Of a DNA stretch of 64,000 nucleotides, positions 23,284 to 61,070 are shown one piece after another; within the stretch, counting starts at the first letter, position 1, and each line of letters opens with the position of its first letter. A program made the position numbers and the translations under genes. The stretch is from Obrimoposthia wandeli. Its lineage: Eukaryota. The notes beneath the pieces are model-generated. The model was given only the letters and a program-made list of their open reading frames with translations. It was not told the DNA's origin and searched no databases. The stretch is taken from assembly GCA_977020255.1 (NCBI GenBank), contig CDROCS010002633.1, forward strand, positions 558,001 through 622,000. The letters run 5' to 3'.

Positions 23284-23335
23284 TTGAAAAAAATAAAATG
23301 AAATACTATAATGATATATTTGTTTATACTTAAAA

Positions 23336-33366: not shown

Positions 33367-33620
33367 AGTAGGTGGATGTGTCCGGTCTAATCCACACCCC
33401 CTCCCCTCTGTCCTTTAAAATCGTGTATGTGTGTGGAGTGAAATTTCGTGTAGGTGTGTGGAGTGAAATTTTGTGTATGTGTGTAGGAAAAAATTAAAAG
33501 GAGTAACGCATAGGGGGGGTATCCCTGTCCTTTAAAACCGTGCATGTGTGTGGAGTGAAATTTCATGTATGTGTGTCTCCATTCCACCCAAAGGGGGGAA
33601 GGGAGGGGTACATACCCCAC
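33367..33620 (+). repeat. E2 terminal repeat region
   Basis: agtaggtggatgtgtccggtctaatccacac followed by tandem gtgtgtggagtgaaattt units. A near-identical copy lies at 60916. Confidence 0.85.
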
Positions 33621-33867
33621 ATTTTTTAAAATTTTACTGCGAATCTCAAAAGTGGTTAGAGAAGACCACGGGAATCCATATTGACCCCGGCGGCTTATCG
33701 CAGACGAGATTTCAAATAATATATTACTACTATTTTTTAGATTAATAAATTACTACATGTTAAATATCTATGTCAGTTTTAAAATTTATAGGATAAAAAA
33801 TCGGTCAGATCTATATAATTTAGAGGAGAAAAAACAAAATACGAGTTAAAATTATTTTTCAAAATAT

Positions 33868-34305
33868 TTAGTAAACATAAAACAACATATTGGCTTCACT
33901 CAAAGTCCAGAGAGGCTGCATTTTCCCGTCATCAGCAAAATATTCATTGAGACGTATTGAGATATTCCATAGTTCTTCATCTAGAATTGGTGCAATCAAA
34001 TATCCTAGATCATCTTTAAAATCCAGACTGGGATCAGTTTCAAGCTCGAAACAATTTCCTTCATATACATAATCAGGAATGTAAAATCCCAAAATATTTT
34101 TCAATTGATCAATATCATATGTTGTTAAAATTTCGATGAGATATTTATTCTTCACTTTTGATATTTTCACAGGATTCATAACTCGTATAATTTGATGCCT
34201 CTTTAATATATTACATAGTTTTCCTTTTGAAATTCTTTCTGGATAATAAAAATTTGCTACACATCTCTTATCCATTCTAAAATAAGGAAACTGATTAAAA
34301 AACAA
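33868..34305 (-). CDS. Conserved accessory protein, possible OB-fold family (E2 paralogue a)
   Basis: DIDQLKNIL..PDYVYEGNCFEL..FKDDLG..WNISIRLNEY..QPLWTLSEA aligns with the neighbouring ORF. Confidence 0.55.
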   Translation of the reverse strand: MFFNQFPYFRMDKRCVANFYYPERISKGKLCNILKRHQIIRVMNPVKISKVKNKYLIEILTTYDIDQLKNILGFYIPDYVYEGNCFELETDPSLDFKDDLGYLIAPILDEELWNISIRLNEYFADDGKMQPLWTLSEANMLFYVY

Positions 34306-34423
34306 TGTTTATAAAAAAATACATATAAGATACATATACGTTACAAATATTTAAAAATAAAACTGATTATTAAATGAAAGTAACATAGTAAAACCGATTA
34401 CAATTTATTACACGTAAATATTT

Positions 34424-34904
34424 AAAACATAGACATATGAGCACGTTCAATTTTCTACATAGGCAACTTTGTTCCCATTTCATTTTTCTTGTAACCATAA
34501 AGTCGAATTGTTACAGTCCATTGCTTCTTTTTCGGAAACGCATCAATATCAACATATCTTCCATAGTCATCTAGAAATGCTTCATCGGGTCCTCGGATAT
34601 AAAATTCGTTCTTATTGAAAGTAAAATTCGGAACTGCCTTTTCAACTTTCTGTTTAAGATATTGAAAATCTGGTTTTTGAATATTTGATAGATAGTAGCT
34701 GAACTTTCTTCTTTCAATTGTCACAGGATTTACTAAAACAATCAGTTGAGCCTTCTTCAAGAATCTGACTTTGTATTTGAAATATTGTTTCACTTCTTCA
34801 TACATATCCTTATCCGATTCTTCAAACATTTCCGAATCTTCGTCACCGCTTAATACCCGTTGGCTATCCTCCATTGTTGATAATTGTCTTTGATATGAAT
34901 GCAT
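34424..34904 (-). pseudogene. Conserved accessory protein, possible OB-fold family (E2 paralogue b)
   Basis: DFQYLKQKV..PNFTFNKNEFYIRG..FLDDYG..WTVTIRLYGYKK..LPM*KIERAH. The TAG falls where homologues have Trp. Confidence 0.6.
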
Positions 34905-34919
34905 TTACTGTGATTTGTC

Positions 34920-35129
34920 CTCCAATGGCGTATTCTTTTATACTAATTTTTAACAAAGACATGAATCTCATTGGTTAATATAACAAAAGCATTGATTGGA
35001 CTAAATTTGATTGGAAGAAATATATCATCCAATTATAATATGTTTGCAAGATAATTACAAGAAACGTGCAATAAAAAAGCAGGTTCAGACATATATAAAG
35101 AAGATTTTACAGAATACAATTTTAGTCTA
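34920..35129. promoter_or_regulatory. Divergent TATA/CCAAT promoter region of E2
   Basis: TATATAAA at 35092-35099, about 30 bp before ATG 35130. Several CCAAT/ATTGG boxes on both strands lie between the head-to-head genes. Confidence 0.5.
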
Positions 35130-35475
35130 ATGAAACTCTTAAATATAAATTATAAAGGTAGAACAGAAGATTATGTTTCGTACTTACCATTCAATGAATG
35201 GAAGCCGAGACAATATGTGGAAAAGTTTGACAATTTTACAGTTGTTGTTTTTCCTACAGGTTAGTTTTTTATTTTATTTTCATATTGATTTCTTTTAGGA
35301 AATTGTCGTGTTATGGGATGCAAAATACCAATACCTGGGTTCAATTTACCATTTGGAATTCGAATCACTGCAATACAATCAATCACGATTTCGGCTAATC
35401 TTGTGAAACAGATAAATCTTTTTAAAACTGCTGAGAAAATGAAAGAAGAATGCATGTTTGAACCAGAAATTTTGA
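35130..35475 (+). pseudogene. TBP-like protein (E2), spliced via 39-nt intron 35260-35298, 3' truncated
   Basis: MKLLNINYKG...TVVVFPTG|NCRVMGCK...IQSITISANLVKQINL..CMFEPE shows both TBP half-repeat signatures. The GTTAGT..TTTTAG intron removes an in-frame TAG. Confidence 0.7.
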
Positions 35476-35756
35476 AGTGGATCGTCTTGCCGACGAAATA
35501 TTTTTTGGAAAAATTAGGGGTAAAGAAATTTTATCAGAATTAAAAAATAATGATATAACAAGAGATAACATTGAAATATTGGTTAGATCACACGTTATTC
35601 GAGAATTTAGAAATCGTACACAAATAAATAAAATTATAGCCCAATATTCATTAATTAATTTTTGTATTTCATCTACAATAGCTCTACCATTGTACATTTC
35701 AATAATGAAACTTCTATGATAATATAAACAATATTAAAAATGAAAGAGTATATGCA

Positions 35757-36400
35757 ATGGAGCTAAATAATAATGTTGTTTTCAAATACTTCGTCCCAGT
35801 GGAAGTGGAAAGACACATTTCGTATGTAAATTGTTGCAAAATGAATCTCTTTTCAAATCTAGTTTCAAAAATATTTATTTGCATCATGGTGGAGGAGGGG
35901 AAAGCGGATTAACCAAAACAGAAGTTTGCAAGTTGAAGGGAATACAATTTATTGAAGGATTTGATGCAAATTGGTGTGAAAGATTGAAAAAAGAAGATGT
36001 AATAATAATTGATGATTTGTATCAGGAAGCTAACAGGCAATCGGACTTTAATAATTTATTTACAAAGATTGCAAGACATCGTGAAGTAACAGTTATATTT
36101 ATCACTCAAAATCTTTTTCATCAAGGTCACCATAGAACAAGAAATCTTAATGTACATTACTTAGTTTTATTTAAAAATTCTAGAGATCAAACAGTTGTAG
36201 ATTTTGTGGCCAGACAGGCATTTACCCAAAATAAGAACTTTCTAGTTGATTCATTCCATGATGCTGCTAAACAAGCACATGAGTATATATTTATTGACTT
36301 TACACAAGCTTGACCAGATGATTTACGTGTTTTAACCGACATATTTAATTCTAAGGGAGTAACTGTTTATAAACAAATAGAGAACAATCATAAAAGATAA
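35757..36400 (+). pseudogene. A32/FtsK-like packaging ATPase, E2
   Basis: PSGSGKT, VIIIDDL and RHREVTVIFITQNLF. One N-terminal frameshift and a TGA at 36311-36313. Confidence 0.9.
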
Positions 36401-36402
36401 AT

Positions 36403-36843
36403 GTACAATGCTTTTTAAGAAGTTGATAGTAAAACGTAAAGCAAAGCCTAAGAAATCAAAAAAAACAATCATTAAGAAAAAAACAATATTTAAATTGAAC
36501 CTTTTTTATTAAAATAAAGAAAATACAAAGAAGCCTACCCTATTTTAAAGCTTTAGTCAAAGCCTCTTCTCATAAGAGAATGATTATTCTTAACGCATTT
36601 CCATCTTTTGTTGTAGATGATTTATTGGAAGTTTTGTATAATATAGTTTTGGGTCGAGTAAAAGTTGGAAATCAAAAAAATATATTAAAGAAATATAGAA
36701 AAACTCTTCTAGATATTGCTAATGTAAAAAGTAAAATAAGGAAACGAAATTTTATTCTTAAACAGAATGGTGGTTTCATAGGGGCTGTTATTCCAGTTGT
36801 TGCTTCAATTATCAGTAGTATTATAGCTGCGACACGATCATAA
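36403..36843 (+). pseudogene. PW-like small virion protein, E2
   Basis: LPYFKALVK..FPSFVVDDL...KQNGGFIGAVIPVVASII, homologous to 27499-27912. Confidence 0.65.
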
Positions 36844-36940
36844 ACAATTATTTCTAAAATCAGCTAAAAATATGGGTGCTAAAAAAATATATGCCCTTCT
36901 TTACCTAAATTTAAATTTTCTTTCTATTCAAATTGTTGTA

Positions 36941-37967
36941 ATGGAGAAGATATGGTTCAACCCAAAAGATCCAATTGGCTACGCAGGAGTTTCAAAATTA
37001 GCAAAAAGAACAAAACAAAATTACAAGAAAACGCAGAAATGGCTGAGCGACCAGCTAGCATACAGTCTGAACAAGTCGATGAGAAGAAGGTTTCCAACTA
37101 GAGCTTACAAAACCAGCGGCCCTAATAATTTATGGCAAATGGATTTGATGGAGATGATCCCATATTCTTCCACTAATAAGGGATATCGATATATTTTAAC
37201 ATGTATTGATGTATTTAGCAGGTTAGCTCGTGCAATTCCAGTTAAAGCAGTCTTCAATAGCTATGCTTGAAGCCATTAAAGAAATATTAAAAGAGGACAT
37301 TCCACAAAATGTGCAAACTGATTTAGGAAAAGAATTTTATAATAAGCAAGTTCAATCATTATTTAAACAAAATAATATAAATCACTACTCTGTGTTTTCA
37401 CAGTACAAAGCAGCAGTAGTAGAAAGATTTAATCGTACTTTAAGAGATCGAATAAAAAAGTATTTCACAAAAGAAGGAAATAAAAAATGGATCCAAGTTT
37501 TACCTAAAATAATACATGCATATAATCACTCGGAACATAGAGGTCTCAAGGGAATGAGACCTGTTGATGTTACTAATAAAAATTCTATGGATATTTGGAT
37601 GGATAGGAATAAAAAAGAAAATATTAAAAAAGCTAAATATAAGAAAAACGAATATGTTCGAATTTTGAAAATTAGCTCTACTCCATTTATTAAAAACTTT
37701 GATCAGAATTGGAGCGATGAAATATTTTGTATAAGTAAAATTGATCAAAAGAGTAATCCAATAATGTATACTATTAAAGATGCTGACAATAATATCATTC
37801 ACGGTAAATTTTACGAGCAAGAACTACAAGTAATATCAAATAAACCTAGCGTTTTCCGTATTCAAAAAATATTAAAATCTAAAGGTGCCGGTAAACATAA
37901 ACAATACTATGTTAAATGGCATGGTTATTCAGATCCAACTTGGATATCAGCATCTAATATAATATGA
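36941..37967 (+). pseudogene. rve integrase with chromodomain, E2 (one frameshift near 37250)
   Basis: WQMDL..LTCIDVFSR, VQTDLGKEF, VVERFNRTL and YYVKWHGYSDPTWI. Confidence 0.92.
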
Positions 37968-38910
37968 AGTCTATGTATATGGTTTTACCTAGTAACGGAT
38001 GTCCGAAGACTCAACCAGATAATTACGCTAGTAGCTTTATTATCGATTGGGAAAATCCTATAAATCTCCAAGGAGAATGGGAAGCGGCTTTAACAGAATT
38101 TTCCTTTTATTATTCTCCAATTACTATCAGAAAAAACTCACATACGTTTACAAAAGAAGTTGATAATGAAAAATCAATTGAAGTTGTGATTGGGTTTGGT
38201 AAAGGAAAATTCTATTACAATTGTATAGATAAAGAAGTGAAAGTTATATATGATAAAAACAAAGTCAGATTTAAAAATCGACTAAAACATTTTTTAAAAC
38301 CTATTCAAATTATATTTGGATCTGACAGAGAAGCTCTTCAATTCGGTTTTGACAGTGGACATGTATGAAGAGATCTGATATAGCCTCATCTAAATCGTTT
38401 AAAAATGTTCCTGATAGAGTAACAAAAGTGTTTTTAGTTGAAACGAGACCAAAGTATGTAGTGGAACTGAAAATGTTTTCAAAAGATTATAAATTAGATA
38501 GTGAAGTGAATTTCTGTAAATTAATACAGAAGGAATGTAGTGAATATTTCGATAAATGTGTAACATTAAAAAAATGGTAAAATAACGTTTACAGTAAAGA
38601 GAAATATAATACGAGTTTTATTTGATGATAAACTCGCTAAAAACCTTGGTTTAAACAGAAATACCTTTGAAACCCATACAATAAAAACCATAAAAGCTAA
38701 AAATAAGGCCAAACTTTTAAATGCTGTTAATCATTTATATATTTATACTAATTTAATAGAACCAACGCTTGTAGGAAAACAGCGAGTTCCACTTTTGAGA
38801 ACAATATGATATAAACAATATTGAAGTAAATATTAGAGATGATTCCGGACAACTAATAGATTTCACGTACGGGGCCAAGACAAGTTTAACAATACATTTA
38901 AGAAAACAAA
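37964..38910 (+). pseudogene. Minor capsid/penton protein, E2
   Basis: MYMVLPSNGCP..IDWENPINLQGEWEAALTEF at the N-terminus; YIYTNLIEPTLVG..VPLLR and IEVNIRDDSG..TSLTIHLR at the C-terminus. Frameshifts. Confidence 0.85.
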
Positions 38911-39288
38911 ATGGCGAATCCAGCAATAATTGAAGCTTATAGTCAAAGCCAACAAGGTGGAGAATTACCATATTTTGTTGGTAAACAATATAGATCTGGC
39001 TGGCTTAGAACATTAGGTAGATTTGCCTTTCCTCTTTTAAAGAGACTCGGGCGATTTATATCAAAATTAGGAAAGGATTACCTTTCATCTAAGGACAATA
39101 AACTAATACCAACTTTTAAGAAGCATGCACTTGATGAACTTGATAATGTTTTACCTGAAGTTGCTAATTTGATTAGAAAACGTAAATCAAATAACAGCCA
39201 AGGAGGTAGTGGATTTAAACGTAAAAAGAAGCAAAAAATTAATATAAACAAACGTAAGAAAGTTGAAGGAACAATATTTGCAAAGTGA
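38911..39288 (+). CDS. Basic core/membrane-active virion protein (PZ-like), E2
   Basis: Intact 125-aa ORF with SQQGGELPYFVGKQY, an amphipathic WLRTLGRFAFPLLKRLG helix and a Lys/Arg-rich tail. Confidence 0.75.
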   Translation: MANPAIIEAYSQSQQGGELPYFVGKQYRSGWLRTLGRFAFPLLKRLGRFISKLGKDYLSSKDNKLIPTFKKHALDELDNVLPEVANLIRKRKSNNSQGGSGFKRKKKQKININKRKKVEGTIFAK

Positions 39289-40509
39289 GTTGCGCCAAAC
39301 CGAATTGTGTATTTTTGATTAACCACTTCCACAAGTAGTTGTAGATAATGCTTCCTCTGAAGAAATATTTCTAGTTAATTCAGTTTCAGGAACCACTTTA
39401 ACCGATTTAGAATTTAATATTAATGGTTCCAATAGCGAGTATTTAGATTTGAATGATACTTTGCTTTATGTTCAAATAAAAGTATTACATCAAGATGGTA
39501 ATAATTTAGAGGGAAATGACAATGTAACACCTGTAAATTATCTCTTTAATTCTTTATTTAGTGATGCCATTGTTACTCTTAATAATGTCAAAATTGAAGG
39601 TGGAAATTCTTCCTATGCTCATAAAGCTTTGATTGAAAGTCTATTGAATTATAGTATTGATACTCAAAATACTAATTTGGCAACCATTGGTTATGATAAA
39701 ACAGTTGCAACTTACAAAGAATGGATTACAGATTCTAAAGCTTACGAAATGTGTGGGTCTTTGAGATTGAATTTCTTTGAACAACCGAAATATTTAATTC
39801 CCGGTGTTAATGTACATCTTCGTTTGAAACGTAATAAATGGAATTTTTCTTTGATAAGCACATACGTTCTAAAACCTAGACTTGATATTTTGGATGCAAA
39901 ATTGTATGTCCGAAGAGTTAAAACCGAGCAATCAGTTTTAATGGCACATAATATAGGAATGGGAAAAAACAATGCTTATCTATTAAAGAAACTAAACTTA
40001 TATCCTATTCTTTAGGTACGGGTACACAAGCTTTTAATAAGGATCAAATTTTTGGTGATGAAAGATTACCGAAATTCATTTTAATATCTTTTCAAAAAAC
40101 TGCAAAGTATCTAGGAAATTATACGACAGATGCAACTCAATTTGACAATCGTAATGTAGGTTCAGTGACACTTTCAAGAAATACTGATTATCGCGAAACA
40201 TATAAAACAAATTTCGAAGGTAACGCTTATGCTTTGGCTTATATGCAATCTATTATTCGGAATTTGGGCCAACTAGATAAAAATATAAACAATGGTATTT
40301 CTTTCACTGAGTTTAAAAGCAGCTGCCCCTTCTTCACATTTGTTTTGGCACCATACTTTGATATAAACCAATGTCAACTACCAAAGGATGGAAATTTACG
40401 ACTAGACATTAAGTTCAATGCAGCTTTAACACATCCTACTACGGTGCTTATTTCCGGAGTGTTTGATTCCGAAATGCAAATCAATAAAAACAGAACTATC
40501 ATATTATAG
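39285..40509 (+). pseudogene. Major capsid protein, E2
   Basis: ELCIFD*PLPQ...LEFNI..YLDLNDTLLYV..FFEQPKYLIPGV..FTFVLAP..GNLRLDIKF. Start GTG; stops and frameshifts. Confidence 0.9.
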
Positions 40510-40539
40510 AATGAAGTAAGACATTTTTTAAATTTATAG

Positions 40540-43500
40540 TCTTGAAGACTTACACCCTCAAATTCAGTTATGGGTGGGATTTCAGTTGTATTTTCTAAAT
40601 CTGCGAAAGTTTTCGCAAATTTATACGGAAAAATCCCCTTATCGTTAACCGAAGCTGGGAACACTGACTGTGAAATTGGCCATGCATTTAAAGATGCCGT
40701 TAAATTTTTTAAAGACCCACTCAAAAACTGCAGAGAATCTATGAATCTTAAACTGCAGAATTCAGTATATGCAGTTAAAGATAAATATTTCTATGAAGTT
40801 TGAGGTATACATGAAATTTCCCAAGAGCTTAATGTACCCAACGCATATTTAAGTATATGGTGCAAATCATATCCTTTGAGGTTATGAAACACGATGGGAA
40901 TTCGTGGTTTTTTAGGGAGACGACGGCCAAGGTTACAGAGGTTGCACGCCGCTCCCAAGTATCGCCCCGTAACATGATCGTGATCTCTGACTAACTTAGA
41001 CTGGGTTCCACACAAATAACATAATCTACAAGAATTAAAATTAACCCAGTCTATGCCTGTCATGATCATTGCTTGATGAGCATTAAGATCATACCACGGT
41101 TTGACAATTGTTGTTCCTAATTCTTCTAATTTTAACATAAAATTTAAAATACAATTTGGACCGGAAAATTTATGATACTGTGTAATATTGGGGCCTAAGA
41201 ATAGTAATCCTGCCGAAGCCGGTTGGTGAATACTCTCATACTGTTCATGCAATGCTAGAATTGACTCAAAATCTGCATACACCCTGAATTCCACGGGTAT
41301 GCATTTTGCCCAATCCCTGAATTTTAAATCCTTAAGCATGCTGTATAGCGTATTGTCATCAGGATTTAGAGAATATAATGCCAGATGTTTGCAGTAAGAG
41401 AGCTCGGATCGGAATTCATGTAAACATCTATGACACCACTTACACCTTATCCTAACCGGTATATGTTCGAGCAAAATTAAGTTGACCTGAGTCACCTCAT
41501 TTTTGCTTCTATAAATTACATCTACAAAATGATTTTTAAAAATTTCTTCATCTGCTACATTAANNNNNNNNNNNNNNNNNNNNNNNNNNNNNNNNNNNNN
41601 NNNNNNNNNNNNNNNNNNNNNNNNNNNNNNNNNNNNNNNNNNNNNNNNNNNNNNNNNNNNNNNNNNNNNNNNNNNNNNNNNNNNNNNNNNNNNNNNNNNN
41701 NNNNNNNNNNNNNNNNNNNNNNNNNNNNNNNNNNNNNNNNNNNNNNNNNNNNNNNNNNNNNNNNNNNNNNNNNNNNNNNNNNNNNNNNNNNNNNNNNNNN
41801 NNNNNNNNNNNNNNNNNNNNNNNNNNNNNNNNNNNNNNNNNNNNNNNNNNNNNNNNNNNNNNNNNNNNNNNNNNNNNNNNNNNNNNNNNNNNNNNNNNNN
41901 NNNNNNNNNNNNNNNNNNNNNNNNNNNNNNNNNNNNNNNNNNNNNNNNNNNNNNNNNNNNNNNNNNNNNNNNNNNNNNNNNNNNNNNNNNNNNNNNNNNN
42001 NNNNNNNNNNNNNNNNNNGAACGCAATCAATTTTTCAAAAGCCCCATAGGGGCCTCTTCTACTTTACGTAGGTCCGGGTCTCAATCTTAGTATAGTTGCT
42101 GCTGGTCCTCGGTAGCAGTAACAGTAGCTGCTTGGGGTCTCGGTTTCGTCATTAGAACTTTGAGTAGGTCCGCGTACTTTTTCAGTACTCTTACGTCATC
42201 GCCGGGTACAGTTTTGGGCCCTCGGCAGTCTCGATTGTAGCGGGGCCACCTTTTCGGCCAAATTTGTCGATAATACCAGACAGTATCTTTGCGCACTCCT
42301 CATTAACATCGTAGTTTCGCAGTAACCCAAAAATATCGTCTTGGGCCCCCTGCAGGAAGTTATAATTACTCCTGTTGTTTACCTGCGCTTCATTATTTCT
42401 CTTCCTGCCCATGTCGAAATTTTCAGATCTTATTATTTTTATTCAGAATTTTTAAATCATTATTAATTTGTTTTTTTTTGGATCATTGACAAAAGGCTCA
42501 TTTTCGGCACACGAATCCGCTGTTGTTTGTTGTTGGTTGTTGTTGTTTTTTGTTGTGTTTTTGTTGTTGTGTTGTGTTGTGTTTTTTTTTTAAGGGCCCT
42601 TTCTACTTTACGTAGGTCCAGGTCTCAATCTTCTCCAGTTCGTCGGCTGACAACTTATCCAGGGTCCCAGTTGTATGACTCGAGAATTTAGCCCACTAGG
42701 CTGCCGTATGTTCGATGGTTTTCAGGGTTAGTCGGATCTTGATATCCTTGATCTCCTTTGCTTTAAAACCAGCATTTGCAAAGATCCGGTTATTGATTTC
42801 AGGTCAGTAGCCGAGGGTCCCGATCCTTAGCGCGTAGAGTTGCACGAGTTTTTCTGGGTGGCAGGTCTTTAGCATTTCAACGAGCTCCGCGTATTTGGAC
42901 ACAGTTTCGGTGAGCCTCAGATCAAATGACATGTCAGAGTCAAACGGGATCTTGATCTCTATCAGCATCACCTTATAGTCAGTCTCGATCGTTATGTCTG
43001 GTCGTGGTCTGCGGCTGTTTCCGTTATCGTCTACACATAAGTGGGTCATCTCTTGAGTTACCTTACCTGGATATTTTAGTTCCATGACCCTTGCAGTTTC
43101 CCGGCAGATCATGTCGTGTCTTTGAATTCGTAGTTTTGCTATGAGCTTACAACCAACGATTGCATGGCTCATCGACTCTCGCTCCTGGCATCCCTTCCTG
43201 CATGGGGCGATCATATCAGTCCTGGGGCCTCGTACCTTCATGCGCCCGCACCTTGCGCGGTGGATGAAGAACCACCCTCAGTACGTCAGACGGCCCTTCA
43301 TGATGGCCCGGTTAATGTCTGTGTCTGATGTGGCGTTCTTATATATTGGACTCGCTAGCTTGTCTTCGAGAACCTTGTGACTTTGGCTGAGTTGCATAAT
43401 TTTATGCATCGCCTTACTTGTGGCCTTGTAGGTCTTGAACTGGATGAGAAAACTGCCTCCATGGGCGCTGGTTATGAAAAGATTGAGTGCTTGGTCCTTC

Positions 43501-46500
43501 TCAATCAGTTCTAGTTTGATATTTAGCTCATTCTGGAATTTCTTAGCCGCGTGGAACAGCCGCGTCCAAAGTCCCGTATCTTTCATGTTAGTGGCTAGGG
43601 TCCCTTCATTAACCCCTGAACTGCTTTGGAGAAGGTCATTGGCAGATTAGGAAACTTCAATTGTTCGGTGAGCTCACGCCTGAATAGGTTCTTCAGGTCC
43701 CTGTCGCGTGCATTTGCCATATTTATCGTCTGGATGATGGACTGGATGTTATATTCGTCCTCAATCCTTGTCAGCCCAAGACCTCCACGGTCCTTGAGCC
43801 CATAGAGAACTCCGATAGGGCTGTTGGCTAAGTCTAGTCCCGCGATTGGTTTTATGACTTTCCTTAGGAGTTCTTCGAAGCCCCTTTCGTCTGTTCGGTT
43901 GCAGGATAAGCGGGAGTGTACCAGGTTTCCCTGTCTGAATACAAATATCAGCTTTGAGTGAATGAAGGTATTGTATGCGTCAGTATTTTGATACGGTCTT
44001 AGATCGCTTTAGGCCACTGTCGTGGTCAGTCGAAGCACTTCAGCCAACAGCTCCTCCCAATGTTGCTTGGCGTTTGCAGTCCTGTCGCTGCCAAGGTATC
44101 GGTATGGCGTGTCCGCAGTTACCTCTGGTATTTTTTCCCCTCTCAAAATGAGATTGTCGACTCGTTTGTCTTTCCTGTATGGTATTCGTAGGACACCACA
44201 CTTGCTGGGCCGGAATGTCAGCTTTAGGGTACTCGCGGTCTTGTCAGCAGTATTGATCAGGGTCTGGAGTCCTTCTTTGGAGCTAGATATGAGTGCGAGG
44301 TCATCGGCGTATGCAAGGGTCCGGATTTCTTCACCTGTTTCAAATCTGTATCCTGAGCCATGGCTTTGGTTTGTGGCCTCTATTACCGGATTGATGCTCA
44401 TATTAAATAAGAGCATCGATAGTGGACACCCTTGTCGCACTCCTCGTTTTATTGGGATCCAGTCGATTTTCCTGTCACCGCAGACAATGTTGGTCATATT
44501 CTGCTTATATACATCTTCAAGCAGTCTGATAGCGGCTGGGGCCACGTTAATTTTTTCCAGCATTCCCCAAATGAAAGAGACTGGCACTGACCTAAAGGCA
44601 TCGGCCAGATCTAGGAAGGCGATGTAGGCGCAGCTTTGGTTCCTCTTTCGCAATACTTCCGAGGTGATCAGGCTAATCACCGTGTTGTGCTCGAAGCACC
44701 CCTCGTAGGCACCAAGGGATTTTTGTCGTGGATCCAGTATTTTATTCTTCCAGGCCCAATCACTCATCCGTCTTGTGATGATTGACACAAATATCTTGTA
44801 AACGCATGACATGACTGCGATAGGTCGCCAAGCTGTGATGTCATCGTAGCGCTGTTTCCTAGGTTTTGGGATGAACTTGGTCTTGAAGGTTCGCCAAGAG
44901 TCGGGAGTCCGTTGTTCGTCAATGCATGCATTGTATAGGCTTGCCAGTTTGTTACCATTATTGAAGCTGTGTAACATGTCCCTATATGTTACTTGGTCCG
45001 GTCCTGGGGCACTACTAGGTGCTGCTCTCAGCGCTCGAGTCACCTCCTCTGGAGTGATATGGCTGATCTCGAAGGTCTCTGGTGCTTTTCGGAAAAGGTT
45101 ATCGGGAACTGCATCCCAGTCAATTGGGGTTGGTTCGGCGCTCTTGCTTGTGAAGAAACCCCGTATGTTGTCCTCGTTTGGGCATGCTGTTGTCTTGTCG
45201 ATAGGGATCTCCGTGATTTTGTCAAATGCTGCTTTTTTTGAGAAGGCGTATAGCTTGTTAATTACGATATTCTCCTTGTTCTTGCCGTGGTTCCTTGGCT
45301 TGAAACAAGGGGCTTGATCGCAATCCAGTTTCCTCAGTAGGCAGGCTGTGGTCACAGACTTTTCTATAGCGTTCACTTCCTTTCTTTCCTGCTGGGGGTT
45401 ATTGCTCAGCACAATGGCCAAGGGTTCAGATATGTCACAATTCCCATTACCCGGTGATGCTGAGCAACTCAGTTTCCCGACTTCGGGAAAGCTGAGGCTG
45501 ATATATTGTTCTCCCATTCTGTCTTACTTTTAGGTGGTGGTAAAAACTGGTCTAAACCTGTAATTGGTATGTCCTTCTTGTGGCCTGATCTCAGCTGTCT
45601 TTCATTTTGGCCTCCCCTACCTGGAATCCTGTTCGGTTCCCCCGAGGTCGATGCAGTAGGATCTGCATTTAGATCCTGAAAAATGGCATCAATTATTGCT
45701 CCAGTATCTTTGGTAGTCTCTTTGAGGATTGTCTCCCCTGGGATTGTCTCCTCAGGGATTTTCATTCTTCTCTCCGTTACGATGGGTACAACGTCATCCT
45801 GGTTACTGATGTGTCGTGCATTGACAGGGTTTGGGTCCGCTATCTGCGGCATCTTACCTTCTAAGAATTTCTTCTCGGTTTCTGCTGCACTGTTTCGTAT
45901 GCCAAACTTTATTTTTTTGTCTGTGGAGAACCATTTTTTGAGCTCGTCCGATTTTTCAATGAAACCACCATTTGGGCCTATGATGTTAGTGGCATTCGCA
46001 GTTCCGTCTTATCGTCTCTGTGCGTGTGCTTTGATGAAAGTGCCACTGATTAGAAAGGGGGAGGCGCCTTTTTTGTTTCCGCTGAGGATTGTCATTCCTC
46101 TCTCCGTTACGATGGGTACAACGTCATCCTGGTTACTGATGTGTCCTGCATTGACAGGGTGTGGGTCCGCTATCTGCGGCATCTTACCTTCAAAGAATTT
46201 CTTCTATGTTTGCTGTAAGAGAGCTCGGATCGGAATCCATGTAAACATATATGACACCACTTACACCTTATCCTAACCGGTATATGTTCGAGCAAAATTA
46301 AGTTGACCTGAGTCCCCTTATTTTTGCTTCTATAAATTACATCTACAAAAGGATTTTTAAAAATTTCTTCATCTGCTACATTAACTGGGATATCAGTATT
46401 GTATTTGAATACATTAATACTGAAGTTATTAAGGTGTTCAAATCTTGATATCGCAGTTAATTTAACTGGAAAATCTATTCCATGATACTGCAATTCATTT

Positions 46501-47436
46501 AAAAAATAGGTATATTTACTGACACGCTCTCTATGCTCAGTAATTACATTCCTTTTGAGGATGGCAACACGCTATACAGAAAGCAAAGGTTATCACTGTT
46601 TTGTATGTTAACAATGGAACGTAAAAGTTGAAGAGATTTAGGTGAAGGAATGTATGAACTCCCCGAAAGATATATCATGTCAGTGAACTTTGTTAGAACA
46701 AAGCTAACATCGTGAATTCTAACTAGAGTCCATCCACTACTTACTTCGCTATAATTAGCAATTTTTTCATCTAGGTTTCTTCCAATTTCAGTTACAACAT
46801 TATCATAGAAAACAGTTGCTTTATGTGAAATTACCCAAGTTTTAGTCTCCTCATTGACATTTTTAAACTGCACTGTTGCGCAAAATTGAACCTTAGCCTG
46901 TCCTAATTTAGTCACTTCTGATTTTAAAAGATTTTCAATATTTGAATCTACACATAAAATTTCATTTCCTAATGACACCTTAACTATAACATATTTATTA
47001 TTTAGGTGATACTCTACAGTAGCGCCGTTTTCTCTACGTTTTTTTGGTGGGACCTTATTAAGAAATTGGCCTCGTCTCTTTCTTCCTACAGTCTCTGACA
47101 AACCTCCCCCTAATTGAACGGGAAGACAACTATTCATATTAACAGTTGATACAAACGCAGCTGAGGTTGAAGGTGCTGCTATTGGTGATGCTGCCGATAT
47201 TGAGGCAATCGCAGCTGATATAGACGATGCTGCTGTAGTAGATGCTGAAGTAGTAAATGCTGCCGCAGTTGTAGATGCTGCATTTGGAGTAGTAGCCGAC
47301 ATTGCTGACGAAGAAGCGGCTGTTGTAGAGGATGATGCTGCTGAAATAAATTTATTAAAAAATTAATATATATTTTTTAATTATTACCTCTAAGGCGTGC
47401 TAACATCGATGTAGGCACTCGCGATGGGGGAGGCAT
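40540..47436 (-). pseudogene. Protein-primed DNA polymerase B, E2, with 47-nt intron, split by a retroelement, C-terminal polymerase domain deleted
   Basis: N-terminal SGWTL..GSSYIP..IVNIQNSDNLCFLYS and GIDFPV..FEHLNNFSINVF; then VYADFES, RDHDHVTGRYLGAACNLCN, VFHNLKGYD and KGIFPY. Confidence 0.9.
42019..46205 (-). mobile_element. R2/NeSL/Utopia-type non-LTR retrotransposon (RT plus CCHC plus REL), degraded
   Basis: SAPGPD, WRPIA, GCFEHN, LDLADAF, GVRQGCPLS, LAYADDL, YRYLG; CRKGCQERESMSH..C, RHD, RPD..IEIKIPF and KY. ORF ends at 42603. Confidence 0.92.
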
Positions 47437-47462
47437 AGCTGTCGTAGCGGATCACGGCTGTA

Positions 47463-48233
47463 TCAATGAATTTCCTGAAAAAAAATTAACATAAAATATA
47501 TATAATTACAATAATATATATTTAATTAAAAATAATATATATAATTAAAATTTTAAAAAATAATCTGAAAAATAATAATAAAAAATATCTAATGAAGGCA
47601 ATCCAACTGTAGCTGGAATGAAGTCCTCTTCATTGACGGAATCCATCCATTCCTCGATGGTCTCCAACCAGAAGTTATCGCTCCACTGAGGCTGCTCCAT
47701 CTCGAAATCTGACTGGGTGATATTTTCCATCCTGTCATTGTTCGAGAATTGGGTTGCTGGCGCCAACTCCTCAAAATCTTCTTGGGAGATGTCGTTCATC
47801 CACTCATTGTTAGTCATTTGAGTGGATGGGGCAGCAGCAGAATCAGGAGCCGGGAGAGAAGGAGCAATGGCAGGACCGTAAAATGGTTGATCGACTGCAA
47901 CAGAAATTGGAGCAGGAGCTGGAGCGGCCTGCGAATTGCGCACCAATTGCACGATATCCCTCTTCTTGTTGTTGGCCGTGAAACAGGATAGGTGAACTCG
48001 ATGTTCACCGAAGTAGTCTCGAAACTCCTTCTCCTCCATTGTTCTGCAGAAGGGGCAGACAAACAATTGAAGCCCGCGAGACTTTGTCCGATAGTAGGCG
48101 GACATTATCTCCATGCAGGTCTCTCCTCCATGCGGAGCCGAAGCACCACAATACGCATGGAATAGGTTACACGTAATCTGAAATAATAAATATTAATAAA
48201 GAAATAATAAGTATAGATTCTTACCATAGTCAT
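47463..48233 (-). CDS. Spliced RING-like/acidic-repeat accessory protein, E2
   Basis: MTM|ITCNLFHAYCG..TC..VCPFCR via a 47-nt GTAAGA..TTTCAG intron (48178-48224). Three WMxxI(S/T/N)xxDF-like acidic repeats. The 3' exon structure is uncertain. Confidence 0.55.
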
Positions 48234-48474
48234 TATTTCAAATAATCGGGGATTTTAATGAAGAAAGTGTTTGCTTATATACTAAAATTTATGCACATAT
48301 GCTCTTTTCCTATTGGATTAAAAAATTGAATTTATTCCTCCACTGAGAAGGATTGTTTATCTGTTATTGGTTGATAATTTTATTTTTATTCCTCCAATTA
48401 AAAGACTTATTTGTAATTGGATGAAAAATCAAATTTTTAAATAATGAATTTCTCCAATTAGAAGAATTGTTTAT

Positions 48475-49483
48475 CTACATGTCAAATGATAATAAGATAG
48501 ACTCCCCCAATTCGGCTTCCTATGTGAATAATTAAAATAATTAACTAATTTATAATAACTTACTTCCAATTTAGCCGGAGTCGGTAGGTATCGCTGCTCA
48601 CTCCTGGGATCATCCTGGCTACATTGACTCGTCAAGTACTGCGGTTCAATCAGCCTCTCCACCGTGGTCACTGACGGTGCCAAATCCAGTTGAAGTTTCT
48701 AAAAATGAAAATAACAAAACATTTTAAATAAATTAATAGACTAACCTCATTCGTCGCCTTTATTCTCCTAACAGGACGTATCGGAGATTGCGGCCTTTTG
48801 AACGAATCAGGCCCCGTATTGTCCGCTATCGGAGTTTGAGTTGTAGAGGGAGTGAGACCATCCCAATCGTCGGTGAACAGGCGCCACTCGTCCTCGTCCA
48901 ATTCTGCCACCATCGAATCGTTGGCTCTTGGGGCTCCGATACTTGGCTGTATCCATTCGTCGATGAATGGAGTCAAGTCCTCCTCACCATTCGACGGAAC
49001 GTCATCGGTGAATAGCTCCTCATCTGAGTCTGGTGCGAGTACTATCTCCGGCTGAGACAGAGAGATCAATTTCCAGGGGCGTTTGATTGCCGCCTCAAAA
49101 TTATCGAAGAGATTGGATCTCCTTGCTGCTACTGCTGAAGTTGCCGGACGAGTGGTTTCTGTGTTTTGCCTGGGAGTACAGTCTTCCCAATTCTCAAACG
49201 AATCCTGACTAGTCAGGTCGATATATTGGGATCTCTATACCCCACCTCTCATGCTCATTGGTTCTTCTCTTGGAGTTGAGCTGGCCAATGGCGGTTCTTC
49301 TAGCAACAGATCGGCTCTTGCTGCTGCTTCTCCTTTGTCTCCTTCGCTCACCACCGACGAGTCTTGACTAAGTAAGTCAATGTACTGCGCCGGTGGTAGC
49401 GTTCGCTGCTGTACTGGAGAGGGATCCCCATATAGTTGAACCTCCATATCTTCATCCAAATCGACGTTGTTGAAAATTGGCAT
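48475..49483 (-). pseudogene. Spliced acidic, disordered accessory protein with SIM-like motifs, E2
   Basis: One premature TAG (49235-49237). Two phase-0 introns (48699-48745 and 48520-48563) keep the frame. Repeats of YIDL(L/T)SQDS and LFTDD. Confidence 0.6.
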
Positions 49484-49869
49484 TCTTGATTCATGATTAA
49501 TGAAAAATAATGAAAAGAGGTTTCCTTATATACAAAAAACAACAGACTAACCCTCTTTTATCGTCCAATGAAAGCGTGTTATTCAAATAATTTATTTGAA
49601 AAATCTATAGGCTTTTATCAATTTTTTAACTACCTTTGAATGCGAGTATGTCATTGGATAAAAAAATATTTTATTTGAAAATAGTTTTATTTTCTTAAGT
49701 TTTGTTGCTTAAGTTCAACGTCCAATGAGAACGTATTATTCAAATAATTTATAGTATTTTCTTAATTTTTGTTGATGTTTGAATACATATATATCCTTGG
49801 ATTTAAAATAGTAATATTTTCTTGACCGTACATGTTTGAAGGGTAGAATTTTTATTTCAGAGATCATTT

Positions 49870-49962
49870 AAGGTCAAGTTAAGGTCATGACCTCATGAGG
49901 TAAAGGTCATTTAAGGTCATCATGGGGTCAAGGTCATTTAAGGTCATGATCATTTAAGGTCA
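49870..49962 (+). repeat. Cluster of eight (A/G)GGTCA units
   Basis: taaggtca repeated, including the perfect palindrome AGGTCATGACCT at 49882-49893. Confidence 0.85.
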
Positions 49963-52169
49963 TAATGAATTAATGAACTCATCCGAATAAAATGAAAATG
50001 TTGAAATCATTTCCAATTTATGTAGTTGATGATTTAAAAAAAATTGCGACCCTATATATATGTATCTAGTTATAAATTCTTATAAGAAAAATATTTTTCG
50101 AGCCCCCGATGCTTTCTGGTCACCTGGCCTTGTTTGTTTGCTTCAGCTTGTTGAAGAAGGCAATATTTATAAAATTGCCAGGCTGATTTGACTGTATCCA
50201 TATGGACTTACTCTATGATAAGCAAAACGATTCCCCATGCTGTATCCAACTCGTTTCATGAATATTGCGTTGTAAGTTTTAAGTTGCTGTGTATCGATAT
50301 TGCGATGTTCAGCCATCAAAAGAAAGAAATTTACGAGTGCCACATCCATTAGGTTCATATTAAAATGTAATATCACCTTTCGTACGATCATCTAATGTTC
50401 GTTCCACTGGTGGTAACTCGCGTTTTTTGACTAAATTGATCCTAAATTTGATGTTTATGTCTCTCAGTTTGTTGATCAACACTAGTGAAGTAGAGTAATT
50501 GTCACCCTCTAAGTTATAACCCTTGTCCAGATAAGGAGTATTTTATTGGTCACCAGCCACTTCAGCCACAGAAGAACATTGTTCAAGAATGTAATCCCTC
50601 GCAGAATCTTGACAAATAGAGACCAATCAATTGAGGCAGAAACCAGAAGACGCTTTGGACAACCAAAAACATTTTGTTCATATCCGTTTGATTGTTCAAA
50701 TCAGTACATTATTGTGACATTTGCATTATCAAATCCAATTGACTTGAATATAATATTCCATTTACAAAGTTGAGAACATTATTTTGAATAAAATTGTCTA
50801 CTCCAAAGTATCTGCAAGCTAACCTAAAAGAAAACTTTAATTAGACTTTATGAAGTATGTTGACAGCAGCGTTTCTCAAACTGTGGACTATGACTCAAAT
50901 TATCAACCAAAGTAAATTAATCCAGTTTTCAAAAATAAATTACCCACTGCAAAAAATCAGACGTCTGTTGAGTATTTGTCTTACACGACAATTCTACAAT
51001 AAATTTTGACTGGGCCACAGTTACAAGATTTTGATCAAATTCTAAGAACTAAAAGTTAATTCATTCAAAATAATCGAAAGAGAATGACAGCACCTCGAAT
51101 AGATTTGGTGAAGTAAATAAGAGAAAGAGAAGTTATAGAGTTATTAATTAAATGACATTTTGCTTGATGGGATATCATTATTGCGATGTATAATTTGCAA
51201 CAGAGTTGAAAATTGTCATAGGTTAGCCAGTAAATTAAAAAAAGTGTTTTCCTATATTTTGCATACATCACCTGTCACAATCTTCGACCTAAATAAAGAG
51301 TTATTTAAATAATTATTTAACTGATTTTGTAACTTCTACTAAATATTGTAAAGTTAGACTTAAGTTGAACATATATATATTACTTATAAATAAAGTAGTA
51401 AATTATAAAAATATCGATACTGGCTCCAACTCGTATTTGAGTAACAGACTTGTAATCCCTGTCAGATATCTCCATTTTCTTTCGATTTATTTTCTTTATT
51501 GTTTTATTAAATATAAATATACTTACCACCATTTGTTTATTCTAATTATTATATTTAAAAGATTTTTTTATAATTTTAGGCCTTATTTATGCATTACAAG
51601 TTAGTTAATAATAGACTTGGTAAAAAATAAGTACAGTTAGAATAAACGAATAAATAGCACTAGTAATATGTAATGATAAATTTCGTTAATTTCCACTTCC
51701 CGATGGCACTTGGTGGCAATCTATATTTGAACAATGGAAAATCTATAGATACGAAATTGTCCTCCACCCCAACAACAGTCCCACTCACCTATACATCCTG
51801 ACTATTTTACCTATCGCGGACTCGGGTCACACCTGCTATTTCAGGCTTGTTTACACGTCTGTGCATAATACGGTCATGTTCTAAATTCAGTAATCCATAC
51901 CCTGTACCGGCCTCCTCTCCGAGGTAGACAAATAAATTGGCTATTAACCCCATACATCTGTCTGGAGTGAAAACAAATGTCTGTGTGCAATGTACATGAC
52001 TGAGTAAAAACCCTAAATGTATAGATTTTTTTCAATGAAATATACACAGATTTTTCTCCCATTGCAGATCAATTTACTAGTAGTGACCGCGCTGTTTGAC
52101 CCACAAGTTAGGTACGATTAGCTTCTGAAATTTCAGACAGGTTTTGCTGACAGTGTATCAGTTTTCACT

Positions 52170-54700
52170 TGTTTTAAAACTTTTATTTATAAACGACAAG
52201 CGGCAAACAGTTACGCCACACACCGGTGGACGCAACAAAAAAGGAGGAGAAAATCACGATAAGGTGTGTCCTCAGGATGCAAACAGGTCTGGGCACAGTC
52301 CGGAGCAGACAGCGTTGGGCATCAGAGCAATGATGTAGTGGAGCTAGTAGTCTTAGTATCATCTGGAGACACTGCAGCTCTCCATGTTGCTTGTGACTGC
52401 AGGTGTGACAGCCTTGATGTTCAGTGTCCATGTCACCAGCAGCAGGCGAAGCATGTTGGGGCTGATAGCCAATGTAGATTGATTCGCAGCGACGTAAAGC
52501 AGCGATGGAGACACAGACATATCAGACAAACCAGGTACAGAGTGCACCGAGACTATTTACAAACTTTGGACACAATAAAAATAAAACAAAGACACATCGG
52601 ATGAAGGTAGAGACTGTCAGCCAAGCTGATGAGCTTGATAGATCTGGTGGCTGGCCTTCAGAGCAGCGGTGACACATTTATGCGCTAATAACGTGCATAC
52701 GCTTTTGGGGATGCTGAGTCTCTTCAGGAATTCGTCATTTCTGGGGTCCCAGGAGCCGAGGGCGCCCACCACAAAGGTCTCGACAAGAACACACTGTCCA
52801 GTGCGCGCTCTGAGATCCTCAGCTAGTGGCTCATACTTTGTCTCGTTGTTGAGTCGGGCCTTGTTGAGATTAGGTAGTGTGTCGTATGGCGACTTGAAAT
52901 CTATGATGTATATGATTCTGGTCAGCGGGCAGGTTGTCTGGATGTCAGGCCGCTGGGCCAGCTCAGAACCATCGACTGTGGAGTCGATTTGTACTTTGTA
53001 GTCACATGAAAGCAGACTTTCGCAGAGGAGTCGCTGGATTTCGTTGTGACGCCCGGTCCTGAGGTCACGATGTTTGGGACATATGGACAGGACATGAAAG
53101 GCCGTTTCTGAGGCATTACCGCATCGACGGCAGAATCTGACGGAGTCAGGACCAACATTGGTGGGAGCGCTGCGAAGTTGCAGTATATTGCAGCGAGCCT
53201 TGAACGAGAAGGACCAGCAGTGGTCTGAGAGATCCCGATTGTTGAGTAGCTTGTTGGAGAGAGGAGACTGGGAGAAGGCTGAGACACAGAGCCCCTGTAG
53301 CTTCATTTTGTTCCACTCCTCATAGTAAAAGAGCGAGAGGAGGTCGTGTAGATAGGCGCACACATCTCCTTTGTTGGCCGGTTTGAAGAAGGCATCATGT
53401 GGAGCCGTACTGGTAGCTTCTATACTGAGAAGCACGGCACTGTCCATGCCTACGGAGAACTCGGCGCAGATTTTGCACTTATTCTTTAGATGCCTAACTG
53501 CTTCACGGACCTTTCTCCACCAGGTAGTTTGACGGTCGTGTGAGGGGCAATGAGCACCGTTCAACCATGCAATAGACTCTGCGAGTGAGAGTGGGTGATC
53601 GGCCTTTGGCAGTCTTGACTTTGCGTGGCGAATGAGCTCAAGGCGAGAGAAGTTGGCCACGGATAGATCGCGACTCGCAAACAGGCGAAAAGCGTGGACA
53701 ATGCTCTGGATGGCGTAGTCGTCGCCTGCAGGGACAATTTCCAGGCCACCTTTCTCCGTGCTCGCATACAGGAAGGCATTTGTCAAGATTTTGGCAGGAA
53801 CCTTTAGGATAGACTTGAGTAATCCTCTTACTTTCTCATCGTATCCGGTTCCTTGTGTTGCGTTGACAGATTGGCGACCGTGAGCAGAGGATAGCGTCTG
53901 AACTGGAACTACTCGATTGCGGAGGTGGAAGGGAAGCCGAGATTGTACAAAGGTCTTGAAGGCTCTAAACTTTTGGCGAGGAGCAAGGGTGCTTCCGCAG
54001 ATAGCAGCAAGGTCTTTGAGGTTTTCGTCCAGCACACTGTTGAGGTCTTGTCGCCGCTTAGGTGAGAAAGGCACTCCCAAATAAAAGTATGGAGCATGAT
54101 CAGCAGACGAGGGAATAGAAGCCGAATCTATTAACAGAGGTGCAGGTGCAGCAGCGTTGCTATAGTAGAGACACTTAGCGGGTCGAAAGACTAGGTTGAC
54201 ATAAGAAGCCATAGTCACAGTCTGAGAGAGCAGTGAAATCATCTCAGATGAAGAGGTGGTCATGAGGACCAAATCATCGGCGTAGGCCATGACAGGACAG
54301 AGCGATACAGAGGCCGGAAGATGGAAGGAAAGTGTGCGAGGAATCAGAAAATCGATGCACAAGCAGAATAGCGTCATGGAGAGTGGGCAGCCCTGTTTGA
54401 CACCACTGTTGAGCGGTATTGGCGATGTGAGAACTGGGCCACATGAGTAGCAGCTGTTGTTTTCTCGGTAGATGTCTCTAACGACTGCGAGAGAGCGCGG
54501 GGAGATCTCGAGCTTGGACAGTATATGCCAGATGAGTGCGTGTGGAACAGAGCCGAAGGCGTCTGCGAGATCCAGGAAAACCAGATGGAGACCTAGTTTG
54601 CTGGTCGGGACGCGTCCGTAGTTGTGTCTCTGCACATACTCGATGACCGAGTTCAGGACAAAGTTGTGCTCAGAGCAGCCGTCCGAACTAAGGATTGCTT
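52170..54700 (-). mobile_element. Second R2/NeSL/Utopia-type REL retrotransposon, 5'-truncated, open reading frame
   Basis: Uninterrupted frame from ~54695 to 52617: DGCSEHNF, LDLADAFGSVPH, GVKQGCPLS, YADDL, YFYLG, CRRCGNASETAFHVLSIC, RHN, RPD..IDFKSPY and VGALGSWDP. GC-rich 3' UTR to about 52170. Confidence 0.92.
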
Positions 54701-55925
54701 TTATTGCTTTTCTACCGACTGTACCCTGTAACACTGTAACAATATACATAACTTTATTAAAATCCAGACTACGTCTGAAAGAAAGTCTGTGTTCCACAAA
54801 GACTAAAAGCCGTGGGATCCTCATTTATTGAAGATTTTACATTATCTACAACTACAGTTTACGTTTTGGTAAATATGCTATCGTGGTAGTGGTTTTAAAA
54901 AAATTGTTGTCATCGTAAAAAATATTTCCTAAATTTATGAGAACTTCATTTGTTTAAACATTATTGTACGACAAATAAACAAAAAATCATTTCAAATCCT
55001 GGTATTATAATGACTGTTTTATGTATCCATTTTGTTTTAGTTTTACAATCAATCGATTTTTCATTTAATTACGTTATTAAACCGCGTTTTTAAAACGGAC
55101 TTCTAAAATTGAAGGACCAAATAGAAACATTAAGATTCCATAAGAGACTAATAAAGAAATAACCCAACTGAGCATATCTGAATATTAAAATAATCACTTC
55201 TAAATAGAGTTAAAATTTGAGAAATTAAAAAAAAAACTTTTAAATTCATTTTGTTTGAAAGCTCTCTAAAAGCCGAAATGAAAAAAACTTGATTTGAACT
55301 AAAATAATTTATTTTAATTTTAAACACCATTCAAATTAATTTTTGTAACCTTTTTACATTTTACATTTTAAAATTGGAACAAAAAATAATGCCGGAGGCA
55401 GTTACAAGACTTTTAATCATTTTTTATTACTTATTTTCTATTTTAATATATAAATTTAGCAAATATTAACCCATAATTTCATCGTCAATTTAATATTATT
55501 AATTAATAAAATTAATAGACAACCTGTAGAAATATCTGCTTTGCTGAAATTTTAAAAATGTAATTTAATTTTGACAGATGTCTGAAATAATTAACTAACA
55601 TTTCAATTTCAATGTCTAAAATCGCTCGCGGGCAAAAATAACAGATTCATTCAGAAATGTTTGACGTTTGGGAAATAAAATTACCTATGTAACGATTTGT
55701 ATATTTTTATTTATTATTATAATATTCGTTATCATGATGTGACTTAAAATCTGTTCTGTTTTCTGATAATGCACATTTTAATAAATCACACTACGACTTT
55801 AAGATGTATTTAAAATTTCATCAGATTAACCTTTATCTGTACGTAACAAAATAATATCAGAATTCTGATCAAACTCAGTTCCGGTGATAAAAACAAAAGC
55901 ATTCATATTAAGAATTAGTCTAGAG

Positions 55926-60915: not shown

Positions 60916-61070
60916 AGTAGGTGGATGTGTCCGGTCTAATCCACACACCCCCTCCTGTCCTTTAAAACCGTGCATGTGTGTGGAGTGAAATTTCGTGTAG
61001 GTGTGTGGAGTGAAATTTTACTCCACACACATGCACGGTTTTAAAGGACAGGGAGGGGGGGTTCCCTAAA
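60916..61070 (+). mobile_element. Further E2-family Maverick terminus (independent insertion)
   Basis: The first ~110 bp are nearly identical to 33367 onward, starting AGTAGGTGGATG. Internal ~40-bp-arm palindrome. Confidence 0.8.

Follow-up and report, generated by a model that had tools for sequence, protein, structure and literature searches.

A damaged, predicted spliced accessory gene with a duplicated SIM-like motif ahead of the PolB of an animal Polinton

To our knowledge, neither the way in which animal Polintons evade silencing by the host nor the way in which they activate their genes is understood, and guesses at their accessory genes have relied on LXCXE motifs only. Among the closest described counterparts are the Oncoids, a class of motif-defined, E1A-like genes situated upstream of PolB in adintoviruses (Starrett et al. 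2021, PMC8502044). Motifs are the only basis on which Oncoids are defined (PMC11071296). For intact vertebrate Mavericks, an absence of introns was reported (PMC8097293), and dinoflagellate elements acquire introners (PMC11957031). Regarding SUMO, the (I/V)DLT core is known to prefer SUMO2/3 and occurs in PIAS1 as VIDLT (PMC4907222), and the EVIDLT sequence of adenovirus E1A binds Ubc9 (PMC5030357). The consensus of SUMO-interacting motifs (SIMs) includes acidic or phosphoserine flanks, with phosphoserine raising the affinity; it is degenerate, and many matches are false or non-functional (PMC8616421). In flies, piRNA targeting is connected with the silencing of chromatin through a SUMO ligase (10.1101/533091), which provides a motive for anti-silencing but not evidence at the gene described below.

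The window analyzed here, 64,000 nucleotides of Obrimoposthia wandeli DNA (GCA_977020255.1, contig CDROCS010002633.1, positions 558,001 to 622,000), contains pieces of at least two Polintons in animal DNA, the latter including a potassium channel exon at 15247-15645 (Pfam BTB_2), which is presumably of Shaw type. On the minus strand, a decayed Polinton carries an acidic gene, then a Cys/His-acidic gene, then PolB, with the acidic gene lying about 1 kb upstream of PolB in this deleted copy. PolB (40377-47476, minus strand) has a short 5' exon followed by a predicted intron of 47 nt (47387-47341), is frameshifted and truncated at its 3' end, and is interrupted by a non-LTR retrotransposon (RT at 44012-45523) and an assembly gap. 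A fragment of it matched PF03175 with an E of 0.0014, which is below the cut-off, and Endonuclease_7 was matched with an E of 2.8e-5. Furthermore, it is 42% identical to the PolB at 29060, which passes the cut-off, and its 5' part matched six of the seven viral PolB loci. On these grounds, it counts as the protein-primed PolB of a Polinton/adintovirus. The start of the gene (47341-47476, minus strand) seems to comprise the short exon, the 47-nt intron, and then a long Ala/Ser/Thr run, and the 5' exon may also end the Cys/His neighbor in another frame. Two different non-LTR retrotransposons with RT were seen on the minus strand (42600-46200 and 52617-54824), the first of which interrupts PolB with a 179-nt duplication (41385-41563 and 46206-46384) beside the assembly gap.

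A left arm (33367-40509, plus strand), which belongs either to the Polinton of this PolB or to an abutting one, starts with the end AGTAGG... and carries a cluster that runs toward PolB and comprises an ATPase, an integrase-chromodomain gene, and a gene that we take to be capsid-like. Pfam matches were found for rve (E 3.7e-6; 27.5 bits, cut-off 32.6), Chromo (E 1.7e-5; 25.0, cut-off 25.1), and, above the cut-off, Pox_A32 (E 8.1e-6), which is consistent with the rve integrase with chromodomain and the A32-like ATPase of Polintons. The stretch at 39323-40509, presumably capsid, had no Pfam match and is 54% identical to 24184-24861. Two orphan ORFs of 146 and 149 aa, without a Pfam match, lie near the left end (33871-34904, minus strand), and a second copy of the left end is folded back as a 47-nt hairpin at 60916-61062, beside CACCA repeats and a gap. 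In the other Polinton, PolB is interrupted by a hAT-like transposon with a Spin-doc zinc finger (30005-32000, minus strand). We also observed a TBP-fold ORF (19097-19399, minus strand; Pfam PF00352, E 2e-8), a relative of which, 41% identical, apparently spliced and frameshifted, lies in the Polinton left arm (about 35130-35500, plus strand); a limited literature search found no report of a Polinton-borne TATA-binding-protein-like gene.

The first-pass annotation had placed the acidic gene near the element end. This was not confirmed, since near 50 kb this truncated copy has no inverted repeat on the right side that would match the left end at 33367, and the similarity to the family breaks off at a rearrangement near 49970. 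RGGTCA-rich repeats (nine in 126 nt, 49850-49975) lead up to this junction, and at 49970-49975 the contig depth was 8-214 as compared to 10^5-10^6 within the gene. Beyond it, 62 nt (49984-50045) are 97% identical, in inverted orientation, to 27697-27758, which is coding DNA of the other Polinton family. The acidic gene is the outermost surviving gene of this copy, the end of which is lost.

The acidic gene starts with an ATG at 49483 (minus strand) and extends over three predicted exons. Exon 1 (48746-49483; 246 codons) is acidic, predicted to be disordered, and has a GC content of 50%. It is separated by a predicted 47-nt, phase 0 intron (48699-48745, GTTAGT..TAG, GC 15%) from exon 2 (48564-48698; 45 codons, GC 52%), which holds a degenerate third motif copy, QYLTSQCSQDD. 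A second predicted phase 0 intron of 44 nt (48520-48563, GTAAGT..TAG, GC 14%) precedes a six-codon remnant of exon 3 (48502-48519) that is cut by a deletion at 48502/48503. Both introns, with their donors, are where the first-pass annotation had put them (48745-48699 and 48563-48520). The Asp/Glu/Pro/Ser-rich frame of about 305 aa that it had reported also adds up (246, 45, and 14 codons; D+E 19%, S+T 16%, P 9.5%, and two Cys in 305); however, this frame is broken by a TAG at codon 83 (49235-49237), and its last eight codons lie past the deletion junction.

Despite the stop, the gene is clearly real and coding. The 246-codon frame contains a single stop as compared to 11, 13, 8, 5, and 11 in the remaining five frames, a frame as open as this (at most one stop) was obtained in none of 5000 shuffles, and the steps in GC content coincide with the GT/AG boundaries of the exons. 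These results argue against a functional TAG, used in readthrough or a two-ORF design, and against a non-coding region with chance introns. The window does show a stop at codon 83, as such readings would have it, but the other copies of the family lack it. We compared the contigs of four DNA runs, all from one sample, aligned to 47350-50150. From 60,211 to 92,865 contigs matched per run, mostly 90-99% alike, and thus, the family is very abundant; the summed contig depth is no copy number and supports only "very many." At the first base of the TAG (49237), 98.9-99.6% of the depth had another letter in all four runs. Therefore, the stop is a mutation private to this copy; readthrough was rejected on this ground, and a functional stop or a non-coding region is hardly credible. 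The GTAAGT donor of intron 2, although present in the window as annotated, is likewise this copy's own, as about 99% of the family depth differs at its +5 base. A 1-nt deletion inside intron 1 was found in 10-14% of the depth. Only 1 of the 11 listed indel places fell in coding DNA, which makes up 56% of the stretch (P 0.002), a comparison confounded by the preference of indels for AT-rich runs. Among the 40 of 367 variable places that were listed, none fell in a motif, the TATA box, the ATG, or a GT/AG, and because about one would be expected there by chance, this zero is no test of conservation across copies.

The second lesion is a deletion. Loose contig ends accumulated behind 48503 (99, 109, 79, and 79 contigs in the four runs) and before 48502 (54 and 32 contigs in the two of four runs for which they were listed), and the GC content falls from 61 to 26% at 48502/48503. 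Thus, a stretch was lost inside exon 3, and the last eight codons, the 305-aa length, and the C terminus are artifacts of this copy. On the exon side of the junction, inspection by eye showed that the loose letters continue for about ten stop-free codons, and the missing C-terminal part could change the reading of function. Contig pieces ending at 48745-48747 may be contig breaks and were left out of account. The frame joined on by the deletion (48471-48503, minus strand) is the 3' end of another gene, probably the tail of a DEDD/Maelstrom-like one: by eye, the loose letters beyond the junction together with the ten remaining window codons have the His/Cys pattern found at the end of the ORF at 22834-23283, and the ten window residues past the junction gave no BLAST alignment. 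That ORF (minus strand, 151 aa) follows a protease-like frame of the other Polinton, with a DxE start and a His/Cys end. It was close to unnamed arthropod-rich clusters (0.96-0.97), while the Maelstrom lead (0.86) stayed below the 0.9 line, and homologue searches with 22834-23286 were blank. Together, these data establish the locus as a nonsense- and deletion-damaged, dead copy of an accessory gene.

Upstream of the acidic gene, the 14-nt promoter word GTATATAAG(G/C)AAAC (49520-49533, minus strand) spans a TATA box, TATATAAG, at 49532-49525 (minus strand), 41 nt ahead of the ATG, in agreement with the first-pass annotation. The word has two matches in the window, here and ahead of the Cys/His neighbor (second copy at 48282). 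Initiator-like TCATT words follow it 21 and 31 nt downstream, and CCAAT boxes lie upstream. An out-of-frame ATG at 49494 (minus strand), 11 nt ahead of the main start, opens a short overlapping frame and counts against the explanation that we favor below. The three genes together contain four predicted introns of 47, 44, 47, and 47 nt with a GC content of 6-15%, one of them in the 5' part of PolB. In a background scan, the first settings recovered intron 2 alone (1 of 97 donor-like sites). After the donors and flank thresholds had been loosened, 3 of 653 donor-like sites passed, all of them within the module and with the neighbor's intron still missed; because this second scan was tuned after the fact, it is descriptive only. 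We consider it quite likely that the introns of 44-47 nt are removed by splicing.

The neighbor (47593-48282, minus strand) has a three-codon first exon, a predicted 47-nt intron (48224-48178), a Cys/His domain, and an acidic, W/F-rich tail. Its main part (47593-48233) contains one CXXC and an ETCME that comes near to LxCxE. The tail varies among other copies by units of about 72 nt, and a stretch at 47649 is missing from this copy. The neighbor is a better candidate for an Oncoid or an activator than the gene with the twin motif. Homologue searches with it found none (best 0.76).

The acidic gene contains two copies of a ten-residue motif, QYIDLLSQDS (copy 1; 49358-49387, minus strand) and QYIDLTSQDS (copy 2; 49199-49228, minus strand), spaced by 53 residues. 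Copy 1 has a SIM-like core that overlaps LxSxD; copy 2 has an IDLT core and is followed by F, giving LxSxDxF. These copies, and two of LFTDD, had been correctly located in the first pass. The twin 10-mers are identical at nine of ten residues, while the best of 1000 shuffles reached seven, and [IVLFY][IV]DL[TL] occurred twice in just 1 of 20,000 shuffles. At the DNA level, the ten codons differ at 9 of 30 nt, six of them in third positions, and the 30-nt flanks match only at the level of chance (6/30 and 9/30). A simulation of neutral divergence kept nine residues in 16 of 200,000 trials, a silent-site test that is inflated because the motif windows were picked for amino acid identity. Duplication followed by silent change and convergence would both imply selection on the peptide, and the twin motif is therefore very likely a selected binding site.

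We then considered its partner. Copy 1 (IDLL) matches the hXhh core, while copy 2 matches (I/V)DLT but, with two aliphatic core residues, fails the strict hXhh/hhXh pattern. The flanks, SQDSS in copy 1 and SQDSFE in copy 2, agree with the serine/acid consensus, and the context is predicted to be disordered. Two CK2 sites of the (ST)XX(DE) type, S46 and T91, follow the motif; because the whole product contains nine such sites, they carry little weight. SUMO or Ubc9 is, in our estimation, somewhat more probable than not as the partner.

In a reading that the first-pass annotation does not consider, the same residues could also form a weak ligand of pocket proteins (p107/p130/Rbf-type), D-L-x-S-x-D-x-hydrophobic with a downstream acid as in LIN52 (LxSxExL). 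Like E1A CR2, the protein would then dislodge DREAM and drive cells toward S phase. DLxSx[DE] occurred twice in 17 of 20,000 shuffles, copy 2 has an F two residues after the acid, both copies have a Glu ten residues after the Leu, at the place of LIN52 phospho-S28 (PMC4421984), both serines are coded by AGT, one base from a Cys codon, and the gene is in the Oncoid position. However, the acid is Asp and not Glu, copy 1 lacks the hydrophobic residue at +2, and the looser LxSx[DE] is common by chance (two or more in 1371 of 20,000 shuffles). LIN52 peptides fail to bind Rb (PMC4421984), and LXSXE is dispensable for pRb binding by canine papillomavirus E7 (PMC2932728). Furthermore, the kept Y-I ahead of DL is accounted for by the SIM but not by the pocket reading, which we regard as rather unlikely. 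Binding to pocket proteins and to SUMO/Ubc9 can coexist, as in E1A, in which the Ubc9 and pocket-protein motifs overlap.

FoldIndex was negative in 10 of 11 windows of the predicted product (exon 1, -0.09; the window 21-61 around motif copy 1, +0.08), which answered the call of the first-pass annotation for a disorder prediction. Single-sequence folds were uninformative (pLDDT 32 and 48), and a fold search gave no match at E 0.001. The most acidic, aromatic-studded part comprises residues 150-215. The first LFTDD (49001-49015, minus strand) lies where acidity peaks, with a net charge of -11 per 30 aa, and the second is at 48866-48880 (minus strand). A perfect 5-mer repeat appeared in 55 of 1000 shuffles, which makes the pair weak evidence by itself; all three nucleotide changes between the copies are silent (P 0.015). 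SQ/TQ occurs seven times against a shuffle mean of 2.8 (12 of 1000 shuffles), with two of the sites inside the duplicated motif, and the tail of the neighbor has five. The enrichment is mild. The proposal that SQ marks ATM/ATR sites is weak, and we rejected it as the main reading.

The SQ/TQ sites of both genes would suit a captured host cargo gene or a plain acidic transactivator, in which the repeats bind other partners (general transcription factors, Mediator, RPA) or are ATM/ATR sites and the likeness to SUMO ligands is incidental. The activation motifs of VP16 and p53 resemble LFTDD, which also speaks for such a gene. Nematode Mavericks carry GC-rich, intron-bearing cargo near the terminal repeat (10.1101/2022.07.12.499685), and the module here is GC-rich with predicted introns. 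On the other hand, no host homologue was found, and chance would seldom produce the exact IDLT core. In addition, the promoter word common to another gene of the element and the same type of intron in PolB indicate an integral module and thus argue against cargo. We consider this alternative unlikely.

The homologue searches covered 769 candidates for exon 1 (with the stop as X) and 1.84 billion proteins for the part after the stop, and neither found a homologue; low-complexity acidic queries such as these are poor probes. The lack of homologues, and with it of cross-species conservation of the motifs, counts against the explanation favored below. The acidic gene had no match in Pfam, PDB, or the protein collections, and the seven viral PolB loci contained no relative of either accessory gene.

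The explanation to which we give an even chance as a whole is that of a disordered early regulator, the twin motifs of which bind SUMO/Ubc9 while its acidic half activates. On this view, a highly amplified family of animal Polintons/adintoviruses would carry the gene as an "early" accessory gene. Its working copies would be transcribed by host RNA polymerase II from a TATA/CCAAT promoter of the type also present at the next gene, and their introns of 44-47 nt would be excised by the host spliceosome. The product would be an intrinsically disordered hub with no enzyme domain in the visible part, whose twin YIDL(L/T)-SQDS motifs most likely bind SUMO or the SUMO E2 Ubc9. The two copies could provide avidity for SUMO chains, with the following serines tuning the affinity by phosphorylation, and the acidic LFTDD/FIDEW region most likely serves as an activation domain. 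Either an activator would be brought to SUMO-marked chromatin of the element or the SUMO machinery would be titrated, so that PolB and other genes are transcribed. Anti-silencing as the purpose, as suggested in the first pass, is a tentative idea that we consider less likely than not. A bolder proposal, which we deem improbable, is that the undamaged element end forms a spliced, co-promoted counter-silencing cassette consisting of an acidic arm with twin SIMs, a Maelstrom-like nuclease of the DEDD type, and the Cys/His activator ahead of PolB. In its boldest form, the SIM arm would be fused to the nuclease as a SUMO-targeted enzyme against piRNA-guided silencing, explaining the very large expansion of the family. 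Against such a fusion, the clusters nearest to the other nuclease-like ORF in the window (22834-23283) consist of proteins of 167-181 aa that stand alone, and a weak search for longer forms found none.

With a high-copy family that has a predicted spliced module, a common promoter word, and a duplicated IDLT-type motif, whether Polintons engage the SUMO machinery as adenovirus E1A does becomes a question that peptides can address at low cost. If binding fails, the dead copy merely adds another accessory gene to the orphans. In the part of the literature that was covered, we found no report of SIMs in Polinton proteins, and the supplementary adintovirus genome maps may hold similar genes.

With multi-SIM proteins of the (I/V)DLT type, such as PIAS1, RNF4, Arkadia, and ICP0, the gene has in common the IDLT/IDLL core, the serine and acid flank, and tandem copies. 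It differs in the 53-residue spacing and in having no RING or other ligase domain in its surviving part, and its SIMs are putative. In common with LIN52 LxSxExL-pS28, it has L-x-S-x-acid, a hydrophobic residue at +2 in copy 2, and an acid at +10 (PMC4421984); with Asp for Glu, Glu in place of phosphoserine, and an incomplete copy 1 (LxSxDxS), it falls outside the LIN52 type. The cargo region of nematode Mavericks likewise lies toward one end and consists of genes that are rich in GC, poorly conserved, and interrupted by introns, but there, introns are absent from the core genes and the cargo consists of enzymes of host families (10.1101/2022.07.12.499685). Here, PolB also apparently has an intron in its 5' part, and the gene belongs to no known family. 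The introns in PolB, if true, depart from the intronless core genes reported for vertebrate and nematode Mavericks.

E1A is, similarly to this gene, acidic, disordered, spliced (here by prediction), and about 250-300 aa long, with IDLT followed by an acidic/phospho stretch (PMC5030357). In contrast to E1A, Ser and Asp stand here where LxCxE has Cys and Glu, the motif is duplicated, no sequence homology to CR1-CR4 was found, there is no CR3 zinc finger, and the end of the element copy is lost. The E1A/IE-like regulator proposed in the first pass is supported by the motif-rich, disordered, predicted spliced anatomy, by the silent-site pattern in the twin motif, and by the likeness to EVIDLT, but E1A homology, LXCXE, CR1, and a zinc finger are absent from this damaged copy. 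Like this gene, which lies on the same strand as PolB, Oncoids are situated upstream of PolB in animal Polintons and have CK2-type sites after the motif, and host manipulation as by the proteins of small DNA tumor viruses was proposed for them (PMC8502044). The surviving part of the gene, from which the C-terminal part is deleted, had no match to LXCXE; the gene had no strict match to the Oncoid CR1, (DEN)(LIMV)XX(LM)(FY), with three LF[DT] words present, and no paired CXXC, the single CXXC being in the neighbor (P0003). Because these three tests failed, we did not file the gene as an Oncoid, nor as E1A; at most, it may work like them. The words SUMO and splic- are absent from the main text of PMC8502044. 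Thus, the slot upstream of PolB is the known Oncoid position, whereas the motif set, with a twin IDL(L/T)-SQD in place of LXCXE, CR1, and CXXC in a gene predicted to be spliced, is undescribed in the literature covered.
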